This document shows, piece by piece, positions 61,983 through 64,000 of a stretch of 64,000 nucleotides of DNA. The translations under genes and the position numbers were made by a program. The first letter of the stretch is position 1. The number at the start of each line of letters is the position of its first letter. The notes beneath the pieces were generated by a model that ran no database searches, was not told where the DNA came from, and saw nothing but the letters and a program-made list of their open reading frames with translations. This stretch comes from Candidatus Omnitrophota bacterium (GTDB lineage: Bacteria > Omnitrophota > Gorgyraeia > Gygaellales > Profunditerraquicolaceae): NCBI GenBank assembly GCA_030691865.1, contig JAUYDL010000041.1:758-64757 (forward strand). Reading direction: 5' to 3'.

Positions 61983-62022
61983 TTTATAAAACTATCTTCT
62001 AAAATTATATGGCAAAAAATGA

Positions 62023-62493
62023 TTAAATCTTCTTCTCATCTTCCTGCGTGATAACCTTAATTACGGATTTTTCATCCATACAGGTTCGTAAGATATCACG
62101 GAAGTATTTATCCTTTAAGAGACGTGATATTCTGGCTAAGGCCTTAAGATGCGGGCCGGCGGAATCCTGCGGGGCAACCAGTAAAAAGAAAATATAAGCT
62201 AATTCGCCATCCAGGGAATCAAAATCCACGCCCTTTTTGGAAAGGCCAAAAGCGACCACTAGCTTATCCACACAATCGCACTTTGCATGCGGTATGGCTA
62301 TGCCTTGACCGATGGCCGTTGATCCCAAGGCTTCTCTGGACATCAGCGCGTCAATGAGCTTATTACGATTACGTTTTTCTACATCAGAAGCTTCAATTAA
62401 TAAATCCACCATTTCTTTAATCACGTCTTCCTTGCTGGTGGATTTTATATCAGTGAGAATAGCCTTCTTCGAGAGAAAATCCATTATCTGCAT
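62023..62493 (-). CDS. ptsN: PTS EIIA(Ntr)-type regulatory protein PtsN
   Basis: GQGIAIPHAKC active-site His region. Confidence 0.8.
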   Translation of the reverse strand: MQIMDFLSKKAILTDIKSTSKEDVIKEMVDLLIEASDVEKRNRNKLIDALMSREALGSTAIGQGIAIPHAKCDCVDKLVVAFGLSKKGVDFDSLDGELAYIFFLLVAPQDSAGPHLKALARISRLLKDKYFRDILRTCMDEKSVIKVITQEDEKKI

Positions 62494-62563
62494 TTGCTGC
62501 TCCTTTTTAAATGATTTAATCCGCCAATCTTTATGGCGGAGGAATACATGTGTTATATTTCAA

Positions 62564-62638
62564 TGGAGCGGCGGACGGGATTTGAACCCGTGACATCCTG
62601 CTTGGCAAGCAGGCATTCTACCGCTGAATTACCGCCGC
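62564..62638 (-). tRNA. tRNA-Gly(GCC): tRNA-Gly (anticodon GCC), CCA encoded
   Basis: Cloverleaf folded by eye: acceptor gcggcgg/ccgccgc, anticodon loop ttGCCaa, T-arm acggg-ttcaaat-cccgt. Confidence 0.85.
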
Positions 62639-62693
62639 ATAAAATTTTATTTCCGAGTATTGTAAAAATTTTTTAAAAAACAAAAAATTTTTA

Positions 62694-62777
62694 TGGGCGG
62701 AAGAGGATTTGAACCTCCAAGGCATTGCTGCCACGAGGTTCTAAGCCTCGCGTGTCTGCCAGTTGCACCATCCGCCC
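62694..62777 (-). tRNA. tRNA-Leu(TAG): tRNA-Leu (anticodon TAG), class II with long variable arm, discriminator A, no CCA
   Basis: Acceptor gggcgga/tccgccc, anticodon stem-loop cgagg-ctTAGaa-cctcg, T-loop ttcaaat. Confidence 0.8.
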
Positions 62778-63388
62778 GTCTCGCTACCTAATAAAATCCT
62801 GGTTTTCTCAAATTTTCTATTCAAGAAAACAGTTGATTTATTATAAATCCTTTTTAGTAATTTAATCGAGCTGTGCTTATAGTAAATTAATTCAAAAACT
62901 CTTGGAATAGTTCCAATCTTTCCGCTTAAAGAAAGCAAGTTATAAATCTTACTTTTTAACCAAATTAGAAAATCCTTGCTTGCTGAACAAAATTTTACTC
63001 TTATTTGTGGATGCTTGCTTTCTAGATGCTTAAATGAGGTTACGCAGCCATCTCCATCCAGTAAACCTCTTAAGAAATCGAAAAAGTACTTATTTGGAAT
63101 TTTAAGAGTCCCAATAGTTTTGCTTTTATTTGCAGTTATACCGATATTATTAAGCCAACGATACAACTTTACATTGCCAAATTGAATATAATAATACTTC
63201 CCGTTTTTATTATAACCGCTATTCTTAATTGCGATCTTATTTTTTAACCCAAGGCAAATTTTAAAGGTTTTTATTAAATCGATATCTTTAGAAACGAATA
63301 CAATATGCCTTCCATCTTTTGACAAATTGCCATCCGAAGCCAAAAGTCCTACGCAATATGATAGCTTATTGTCCCATTTTATATTCAT
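62741..63388 (-). CDS. LAGLIDADG family homing endonuclease (two-motif, single-chain type)
   Basis: GLLASDGNL and GLLDGDGCV motifs about 100 aa apart. The ORF 3' end runs 37 nt into the tRNA-Leu gene. Confidence 0.7.
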   Translation of the reverse strand: MNIKWDNKLSYCVGLLASDGNLSKDGRHIVFVSKDIDLIKTFKICLGLKNKIAIKNSGYNKNGKYYYIQFGNVKLYRWLNNIGITANKSKTIGTLKIPNKYFFDFLRGLLDGDGCVTSFKHLESKHPQIRVKFCSASKDFLIWLKSKIYNLLSLSGKIGTIPRVFELIYYKHSSIKLLKRIYNKSTVFLNRKFEKTRILLGSETGGWCNWQTREA

Positions 63389-63526
63389 TTTTCATTCAAC
63401 AATTTCGCCATTCGCCCTAAAGTGAGCTTATTTAAATTCTGTGTAATGTTAGATGCGTAACGTGTAATGCCAATGTAATAACTGACATTCCGCCCACATT
63501 ACACTTTACACATTACGCAATTTTAT

Positions 63527-63599
63527 TGAGCCTCCCGCGACTCGAACGCGGCACAACCACATTAAAAGTGTGGTGCTCTACCTGATGAGCTAGAGGCCC
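63527..63599 (-). tRNA. tRNA-Lys(TTT): tRNA-Lys (anticodon TTT)
   Basis: Acceptor gggcctc/gaggccc, anticodon loop ctTTTaa, T-arm ccgcg-ttcgagt-cgcgg. No CCA. Confidence 0.85.
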
Positions 63600-63607
63600 A
63601 AATCTAA

Positions 63608-64000
63608 TTAAAACTCTAACACTTCCTTCTCTTTAATCTTCAAAAGCTCATCAATCTTAGCGATATACTTATCCACTACCTTCTGCAACTCATCAATACC
63701 GCGAAATTTCTCGTCTTCAGAAATAATTTTATCCTTTTCCAGCTTCTCGACAGATTCTTTGGCCTCTCTTCTAATCGTACGCAGAGATACCCGGCCGTCT
63801 TCAGACATTTTATGCAGTAACTTAGCCATCTCCTGGCGCCTCTCCTTGGATAGCTGCGGAACAGTAATTCTAATTATCTTGCCGTCATTAGAAGGGCTAA
63901 CCCCCAGATTAGATTTCAGAATCGCCTTCTCAATCTCAGCAATCGCAGTAAGATCCCAGGGTTGGATAACAATCAAATGCGCGTCCGGTGCGGATATTGC
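63608..64000 (-). CDS. frr: ribosome recycling factor, partial (N-terminus beyond window end)
   Basis: C-terminal RRF region ...ITVPQLSKERRQEMAKLLHKMSEDGRVSLRTIRREA... The reading frame is open to the window edge. Confidence 0.85.
   Translation of the reverse strand, partial: AISAPDAHLIVIQPWDLTAIAEIEKAILKSNLGVSPSNDGKIIRITVPQLSKERRQEMAKLLHKMSEDGRVSLRTIRREAKESVEKLEKDKIISEDEKFRGIDELQKVVDKYIAKIDELLKIKEKEVLEF

Follow-up and report, generated by a model that had tools for sequence, protein, structure and literature searches.

A free-standing LAGLIDADG homing endonuclease gene joined to tRNA-Leu in Candidatus Omnitrophota, probably of a family specialised on bacterial tRNA-Leu genes

A homing endonuclease gene (HEG) of the LAGLIDADG type is located in a cluster of tRNA genes on a contig of Candidatus Omnitrophota (JAUYDL010000041.1, assembly GCA_030691865.1), of which a stretch of 64,000 nucleotides, positions 758 to 64,757, was analyzed and is called the window below. 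Its position between uninterrupted tRNA genes raises the question of whether it is left over from an intron, serves its host, or is mobile and targets one of its neighbours. A preliminary description made from the letters alone had considered an intron-less or remnant insertion, or an endonuclease directed against a tRNA gene, and it is the last of these that the comparative data favour. The open reading frame (ORF) is probably a functional free-standing LAGLIDADG HEG of a family specialised on bacterial tRNA-Leu genes, which inserts together with a replacement for the 5' part of the tRNA. As described before, it lies between tRNA-Leu and tRNA-Lys on the same strand as both, where it is the single long ORF in a gap of 748 nt. 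Comparison loci are designated L001 and so on, and the window locus W.

The 215-aa product contains the motifs GLLASDGNL and GLLDGDGCV with the catalytic residues D19 and D113. LAGLIDADG_3 (PF14528) was the sole Pfam family above its curated cutoff (E-value 2.2e-9, 37.9 bits, cutoff 22.5), and the protein also matched phrog_4645, annotated as 'endonuclease', at 2.6e-29. The best PDB match by sequence was 2dch, I-Tsp061I (3e-8). An identical protein, labelled hypothetical, is present in NCBI and comes from a metagenome-assembled genome (MAG) of Candidatus Omnitrophota. An AlphaFold2 model, built on an alignment of 115 homologs, had a mean predicted local distance difference test score (pLDDT) of 91.3 and a predicted template modelling score of 0.86, and displayed an alpha-beta-beta-alpha-beta-beta-alpha layout in both halves. 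The pLDDT fell below 50 solely in residues 204-215, a disordered tail that is translated from tRNA-Leu. Among PDB structures, Foldseek ranked I-Tsp061I first (3.5e-12, template modelling score 0.63-0.66), followed by I-AniI, E-DreI, I-DmoI and I-SceI, all of them monomeric nucleases, and the top 50 hits were all of the LAGLIDADG fold and nearly all endonucleases, with probability 1.00. Profile match and confidently predicted two-domain fold are thus in agreement with the two-motif LAGLIDADG protein proposed earlier.

Among the 115 homologs D113 was invariant and D19 was conserved in at least 90%. Comparison with ten orthologs from the window's clade revealed no internal stop in the ORF; the proportion of nonsynonymous differences (pN) was 0.10-0.23 against a saturated synonymous proportion (pS) of 0.66-0.85, and dN/dS was roughly 0.05-0.1. 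At the sequence level the HEG is thereby shown to be intact and under purifying selection, and the protein looks like an active enzyme. Since the ORF is intact, pN is far below pS and both catalytic aspartates are kept, the HEG is not a decaying remnant. An extra helix-turn-helix (HTH) domain was found neither by the Pfam scan nor in the AlphaFold2 model. No Hint splicing domain exceeded its Pfam cutoff and the 215-aa ORF stands alone, at variance with an intein-encoded HEG. A phage origin was also rejected, since phage relatives were at most 31% identical, indicating no close link.

The ORF has no stop codon ahead of tRNA-Leu. It enters the tRNA gene for 37 nt. One of these nucleotides belongs to codon T203, and after 11 sense codons (GGWCNWQTREA) the ORF ends with the stop TAG, which is at the same time the anticodon UAG of the tRNA. 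The overlap and the stop had been recognized in the preliminary description, which however counted 12 codons. Comparable reading into tRNA-Leu was found in L001-L005, L086-L088, L166-L170 and others. C-terminal tails corresponding to translated tRNA-Leu 5' ends were present in 56 of the 120 best database homologs, while protein bodies, used as a control, gave a single occurrence of the tail pattern in 23,967 residues. Most proteins of the family are labelled hypothetical, and their C-terminal tails are artefacts of reading through into a tRNA. Neither a terminator nor a U-tract was found at the locus, and promoter-like matches there were not above chance.

A metagenome scan by two HEG peptide patterns alone detected 80 loci with 42-82% identity. 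In 73 of them the HEG homolog was located on the same strand as a tRNA-Leu gene (tag, cag or gag), from an overlap of 34 nt to 78 nt upstream of it. One further locus (L141) had a degenerate tRNA-Leu at the expected place and five of the 80 were cut off by the contig edge, so that the association holds in 74 of the 75 assessable loci. The lone assessable exception, L163 (262-1024), encodes a full-length HEG that follows an intact tRNA-Leu(caa) at a distance of 34 nt; this homolog has its own stop codon and no tRNA-Leu downstream. An origin or context of the homologs in rRNA introns, which had been expected from many short contigs, was rejected, as the assessable loci were tRNA-Leu contexts instead. 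Overlaps of 36-37 nt between ORF and tRNA-Leu were also identified in Candidatus Nealsonbacteria CP061210.1, a Pacebacteria MAG and another Omnitrophica MAG, and the family spans Omnitrophota and Patescibacteria. The upstream neighbour varied across the family and included tRNA-Lys(ttt), Lys(ctt), Arg(tcg), Leu(cag) and the L19 gene. The ORF is therefore less 'wedged between' two tRNA genes, as had been stated, than bound to tRNA-Leu at its 5' end, and this tie extends over three anticodons and at least two phyla.

In a library clustered at 50% identity the family numbered 73, 964 and 6277 representatives at E-value cutoffs of 1e-30, 1e-10 and 1e-3, respectively. With 964 representatives at the middle threshold, and with such genes common in rRNA insertions of the candidate phyla radiation (CPR; PMC8172020), the earlier statement on the rarity of LAGLIDADG enzymes in bacteria is out of date. 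These sequences suggest a large and apparently undescribed family of tRNA-Leu-specific HEGs. No description of a bacterial association between LAGLIDADG genes and tRNA-Leu was found in the full-text literature, papers in subscription journals being outside its coverage.

The distribution of the HEG at the window's own site was analyzed in 80 species-representative genomes chosen via the neighbouring ptsN (PtsN identity 79-97%). Nearly all of these were labelled Omnitrophota, and some carried 'uncultured Planctomycetales' or other labels. The HEG ORF was detected in none of the 80 (tblastn, 1e-5). The comparison with relatives lacking the ORF, proposed in the preliminary description, thus revealed empty sites with a short Lys-Leu spacer: where the contig reaches, tRNA-Lys(ttt) is followed by 12-624 nt, tRNA-Leu(tag), tRNA-Gly(gcc) and ptsN, and this gene order is kept in the relatives. 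The nearest empty-site relatives, L006, L021 and L022, have flanks 90-94% identical to those of the window at the DNA level. Occupied sites of the same synteny (frr, tRNA-Lys, HEG, tRNA-Leu, tRNA-Gly, ptsN) were found in L001-L005, which represent more distant hosts and whose HEGs are 63-74% identical. In L004 the HEG was 73% identical to that of the window and PtsN 58%, and the upstream neighbours differed too. The sporadic, partly host-discordant distribution is therefore as expected for a mobile gene, and on these comparisons the site is one at which presence and absence alternate in discordance with the host. The base composition of the ORF is also foreign to its surroundings (GC ~0.30 against ~0.43 in both flanks).

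Some relatives displayed further peculiarities around the site. The contigs of L014, L085, L023, L071 and L045 begin 3-90 nt upstream of tRNA-Leu, and ~19 of the 80 species-representative contigs break within the tRNA cluster. Contig breaks at the tRNA-Leu edge could fit strain-level heterogeneity; ordinary assembly failure at tRNA genes could account for them as well. In L166, whose HEG is 93% identical to that of the window, tRNA-Leu and tRNA-Gly are separated by ~1.7 kb (740-2451) compared with 55 nt in the window, and the interval contains three ORFs, encoding an RDD-family protein and two unknowns.

Upstream of the HEG the window retains a short piece of a tRNA-Leu 5' end, GGGCGAATGGCGAAATTG, which ends 11 nt before the start codon and had been missed in the preliminary description. 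At 17 of 18 positions this pseudo-fragment agreed with the beginning of tRNA-Leu in the closest HEG-less relatives (GGGCGGATGGCGAAATTG). The leader before it (aatttaaataagctca…) also precedes a displaced tRNA-Leu pseudo-copy in the HEG-less L009, and leader and fragment together correspond to the local HEG-less lineage (L009 leader, GGCGAAATTG type). The fragment resembles the local HEG-less allele and looks like a 5' end that was displaced from the resident tRNA-Leu. The junction of L166 (…AATTG/ttgaatgaaaa) is identical to that of the window. Longer fragments, from position 1 to ~23-40, occupy the same place in L001, L004/L089, L088, L093, L095, L157, L107, L132, L097, L147, L117 and L154. 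Across the family loci 1-47 nt separate the upstream pseudo-fragments from the start of the HEG, and the fragments are of the standard D-stem type. A local-alignment score of at least 24 was reached in 8 of 58 non-redundant loci, compared with 0 of 335 control windows within the ORFs and 1 of 345 shuffles, and an nhmmer profile search confirmed the tRNA-Leu 5' pseudo-fragments. A 3' fragment is kept just downstream of the intact tRNA in L098, L107, L112 and L150. The HEG is thus located between a functional tRNA-Leu and a displaced partial copy, an arrangement of the type found in organelles. The 5' pseudo-copy of tRNA-Leu upstream indicates that insertion took place into a tRNA-Leu gene, with a replacement for its 5' part. 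An ATG at pseudo-tRNA positions 7-9 (MAEL…) was rejected as a general start codon, since it holds in 2 of the 120 proteins only.

The intact tRNA-Leu of the window also displayed signs of such a replacement. Its positions ~10-47 are of an 'HEG-linked' type with a U11-A24 D-stem, a CGAGG anticodon stem and a longer variable arm, and they differ from the closest relatives at positions 11, 13, 16, 24 and 37 as well as in the anticodon stem and the variable arm. From the T-arm onward, comprising the T-arm and the 3' strand of the acceptor, the gene is identical to those of the HEG-less relatives. The 5' part of the intact window copy (GGTGCAACTGGCAGACAC…) is common to HEG-carrying loci of divergent hosts; GGTGCAACTGGCAGACACGCGAGG… is shared by W, L001, L086, L088 and L166 despite their divergent hosts. 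The HEG-less allele, as in the tRNA-Leu of the L006/L022 type, reads GGGCGGATGGCGAAATTGGCAGACGCGATAGCCTTAGGAGCTATTGGGGCAACCC…. In L002 and L087 an HEG-type D-arm is joined to a host-type anticodon arm, and these two look like recombinants. The standard G10-C11-G12 D-stem was detected in 55 of the 65 empty-site genes that formed the comparison set but in none of the 11 HEG-linked genes of the window's clade (Fisher 6e-8, uncorrected for relatedness). HEG-linked D-stems across the family were unusually varied (GTG, ATG, CTG, GAG, GGG, GCC and ACG), and their strands stay complementary.

Related structures were also found in HEG-less loci. L009 (3113-3216), L021 (3002-3166) and L058 (354-530) contain a pseudo-tRNA-Leu 5' fragment, positions 1 to ~45-53, and a complete tRNA-Leu 16-75 nt after it with a different acceptor stem (GCGGACG vs GGGCGGA). 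In these three loci tRNA-Leu appears to have been replaced without a resident HEG. The HEG-less L036 has an HEG-type D-arm, and all four look like footprints of past events and signs of a homing cycle. At window position 62740 (tRNA-Leu position 37) the window has A37 (loop CUUAGAA), while all relatives examined have G37 (CUUAGGA). G37 is the usual m1G37 position in CUN-reading tRNA-Leu.

We infer from these comparisons that the enzyme would cleave unoccupied tRNA-Leu genes. It would recognise an unoccupied tRNA-Leu of the consensus type by a long site within the first two-thirds of the gene, somewhere from the D-arm to the anticodon arm, and introduce a double-strand break, and the occupied allele would serve as the repair template. 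The HEG would then be copied in together with a new tRNA-Leu 5' part fused to the end of its ORF, and a complete tRNA-Leu would be rebuilt downstream. The resident's old 5' part stays upstream as a decaying pseudo-fragment, as the fragments themselves show. The imported 5' part, with U11-A24 rather than C11-G24, would travel with the HEG and may confer resistance to cleavage; the anticodon stem may also protect the occupied allele. Having neither a leader nor a stop codon of its own, the HEG would presumably be co-transcribed with the tRNA cluster, and release of tRNA-Leu by RNase P would remove the stop codon of the ORF. A more far-reaching version, which we put forward tentatively and regard as possible but rather doubtful, is that of an intron-less gene-drive cassette. 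Such a cassette would cut consensus tRNA-Leu and overwrite its 5' part with a resistant, base-pair-compensated variant; an arms race would explain the diversity of the D-stem pairs 10-25, 11-24 and 12-23 in Omnitrophota and CPR, and expression would be throttled by the RNase P removal of the stop, leading to a non-stop mRNA.

Several points weigh against homing into tRNA-Leu. The target, its cleavage and the transfer are all deduced from comparison between genomes, and if the rebuilt tRNA is complete, an occupied allele would have to escape self-cleavage in some way. Strong purifying selection, together with occupancy of the same site across species saturated at synonymous positions, would also fit a role beneficial to the host. 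A recognisable pseudo-fragment is kept in a minority of the loci only, that of the window is 18 nt long and its local score of 20 is close to the highest control scores, and the position of the junction is ambiguous, between tRNA positions ~18 and 40. The recombination point in L002 and L087 (~25-27) fits poorly with the longer pseudo-fragments. The D-stem association, uncorrected for phylogeny, could mark common descent of the cassette and not resistance. In E. coli some Leu isoacceptors have U11-A24 as an ordinary variant, and a standard C11-G24 pair is present in 22 of 71 HEG-linked tRNA-Leu genes. As unlinked CPR tRNA-Leu genes vary too, U11-A24 was rejected as a universal resistance signature, and on the genes compared it is a marker within the window's clade only.

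Three other explanations were weighed. It is unlikely, though the strongest case can be made for it, that the gene encodes a domesticated LAGLIDADG protein, a DNA- or RNA-binding factor possibly serving the host in expression or maturation of the tRNA-Leu transcript by analogy with maturases or WhiA. Besides the strong purifying selection, the ORFs are intact in all loci examined, the adjacency to tRNA-Leu is conserved across phyla, and bI3 maturase and WhiA are among the Foldseek neighbours (ranks 8, 9 and 17). A host factor of this kind would be expected to have lost catalytic residues and/or to possess an HTH domain, and to show a uniform vertical distribution. The distribution found is patchy instead, the ORF being absent from all of the 80 ptsN-chosen representatives, including the closest relatives of the window by flank DNA, and HEG and host identity disagree in L004. 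WhiA and pure maturases are without the catalytic aspartates, both of which are conserved here, and no HTH domain has been added. The foreign composition of the ORF also speaks against domestication, and the pseudo-fragments with the replaced tRNA 5' part point to repeated insertions.

The other two explanations involve introns. LAGLIDADG genes usually reside in introns, and the ORF could have been left by a former group I or other intron in tRNA-Leu whose ribozyme decayed while the tRNA was regenerated by duplication; the pseudo 5' fragments of the CPR Leu(gag) clade reach ~38-40, near the classical tRNA intron position. However, the Infernal scan proposed in the preliminary description gave no match to the group I intron family (RF00028) at E<=10 in 62000-64000 (Rfam, E-value mode), where three tRNAs alone were found. 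Both flanking tRNAs are contiguous, as had been stated, and exceed the Infernal gathering score of 29 (Table 1). A group I intron-encoded HEG was rejected on these grounds, and with intein domains absent as well, the free-standing, intron-less state of the gene proved correct. No intron surrounded the HEG in any related locus scanned either, all matches being in tRNA-Lys. Since ~10-50 nt separate pseudo-fragment and ORF, and none separate ORF and tRNA, there is no room for a ribozyme, and a remnant intron ORF is very improbable. The matches in tRNA-Lys bear on the last explanation, in which the real target is elsewhere, at the tRNA-Lys intron-insertion site ('collaborative homing') or at an intergenic site, and the tRNA-Leu edge is a tolerated landing place. 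An ORF-less group I intron in tRNA-Lys(UUU) lies just upstream of the HEG in L001 and L005/L092, an arrangement similar to that of F-CphI and psbA (PMC6279837, citing its refs 64-65). However, a pair of the F-CphI type, with the intron adjacent in HEG-carrying genomes, was not found as a rule: tRNA-Lys is intron-less in the window, L002, L003, L087 and L091, while the HEG-less L061 has the intron. In addition, tRNA-Leu downstream is constant across the family where the upstream neighbour is not, and the pseudo-fragments derive from tRNA-Leu and not from tRNA-Lys. Collaborative homing with the tRNA-Lys intron is therefore unlikely, and a target other than tRNA-Leu is on the whole quite improbable.

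The tRNA-Lys intron itself occurs in some Omnitrophota relatives, where it splits the anticodon loop and was matched by RF00028 at 77-81 bits. It was located at 1075-1418 in L001, 2728-2991 in L005 (corresponding to 1943-2206 in L092) and 2523-2789 in L061, the 5' exon ending in …CCCT and the 3' exon beginning with TTTAAGG…. Of these intron-bearing loci, L001 and L005 carry the HEG and L061 does not, and the tRNA-Lys of the window is uninterrupted.

The features of the locus are summarised in Table 1. The lower end of the interval in the preliminary description, 62564, is a real feature boundary but belongs to tRNA-Gly, which had been left unmentioned. The 55-nt spacer between tRNA-Leu and tRNA-Gly contains a perfect 12-nt AT-only inverted repeat (TAAAAATTTTTT / AAAAAATTTTTA) at 62663-62693.

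Table 1. Features of the HEG locus in the window
Feature	Position	Strand	Evidence	Remark
tRNA-Leu(UAG), intact	62694-62777	minus	ARAGORN and Infernal, 50.9 bits	
Overlap of ORF 3' end with tRNA-Leu positions 1-37	62741-62777	minus	sequence reading	
Two-motif LAGLIDADG HEG ORF, 215 aa, free-standing	62741-63388	minus	ORF reading, Pfam, PDB match	
Pseudo-tRNA-Leu 5' fragment (positions 1-18, GGGCGAATGGCGAAATTG)	63400-63417	minus	sequence comparison	
Imperfect hairpin of GTGTAATG-like units, between tRNA-Lys and pseudo-tRNA-Leu	63440-63519	minus	inverted repeats, RNA fold	
tRNA-Lys(UUU), intron-less	63526-63600	minus	ARAGORN; Infernal RF00005, 59.2 bits	upstream neighbour, outside cassette
tRNA-Gly(GCC)	62564-62638	minus	ARAGORN and Infernal	downstream neighbour, context only

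The inverted repeat noted earlier upstream of the ORF is real but unrelated to the HEG. Its arms (63440-63464 and 63495-63519) form an RNA hairpin with a minimum free energy of -27.8 kcal/mol (z = -3.5), and 0 of 200 shuffles folded as well. Within the window GTGTAATG is confined to this repeat. Analogous hairpins follow tRNA-Lys in HEG-less relatives, spacer hairpins being present in L006, L036, L039, L063, L069, L075 and L081. As the analogous hairpins of HEG-less relatives consist of other units, the GTGTAATG hairpin is a separate feature of the spacer. For the same reason, and with neither a terminator nor an above-chance promoter at hand, it was rejected as a cassette end or a regulator of the HEG. 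The units are tandem and species-specific, 6-8 nt long (GTGTAATG, TAGCGTA, GTCTATA, GTAACTA and others), without a U-tract, so that a common architecture is combined with fast-evolving sequence. In L001 (~1455-1596) tRNA-Lys is followed by an insert of ~100 nt, on both sides of which 24 nt of the tRNA-Lys 3' end stand as a direct repeat. The insert, possibly a small repeat or mobile element, contains a GGCGGGATCCCGCC-like palindrome, which recurs in several spacers (also L007, L021 and L064) and is absent from the window.

Among documented architectures, that of free-standing organellar HEGs with partial gene duplicates comes closest. In fungal mitochondria, LAGLIDADG and GIY-YIG ORFs lie between a gene and its partial duplicate, as in the C-terminal duplications of atp6 and cob (PMC6279837). 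There as here, a free-standing HEG has the functional gene on one side and a displaced part of the same gene on the other, and the functional copy is rebuilt from HEG-borne sequence. The two differ in that the host gene is a bacterial chromosomal tRNA gene and not an organellar protein gene, that the 5' end and not the 3' end is duplicated, and that the ORF is fused to an RNA gene without a stop of its own. LAGLIDADG genes are also common in 16S and 23S rRNA insertions of CPR/Patescibacteria (PMC8172020; PMC10714607). These share with the present family the superfamily, the same or neighbouring host groups and a highly conserved structural-RNA gene as the putative target, but they reside inside intervening sequences which are removed from the rRNA, whereas here the tRNA is contiguous and the HEG outside it. 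I-Tsp061I (PDB 2dch), the best match in both sequence and structure, is likewise a monomer of ~200 aa with two motifs, although only ~20% identical, encoded in an archaeal 16S rRNA intron and directed against rRNA.

A free-standing HEG in a tRNA gene cluster is also represented by SegB of phage T4, which belongs to another nuclease family and is a phage gene. SegB, a GIY-YIG enzyme, reportedly acts by intron-less homing to favour inheritance of the tRNA region next to it (work attributed to Brok-Volchanskaya et al., 2008). To our knowledge, neither a fusion with a tRNA gene nor a pseudo-fragment architecture has been described for SegB. Bacterial tRNA genes can also contain a group I intron in the anticodon loop, as tRNA-Leu(UAA) does in cyanobacteria. 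Such introns are usually without an ORF. They resemble the present case as mobile elements at a bacterial tRNA-Leu, but here there is no ribozyme and the tRNA is uninterrupted.

If this explanation is true, a HEG has colonised an essential and uninterrupted bacterial tRNA gene without intron or intein, by supplying a substitute for a piece of the gene. Such a strategy has so far been documented mainly for organellar protein-coding genes. The members of the family would represent compact LAGLIDADG scaffolds of ~200 aa with a predictable, highly conserved natural target. The family may also shape the sequence evolution of tRNA-Leu and the rearrangement of tRNA clusters in Omnitrophota and Patescibacteria.

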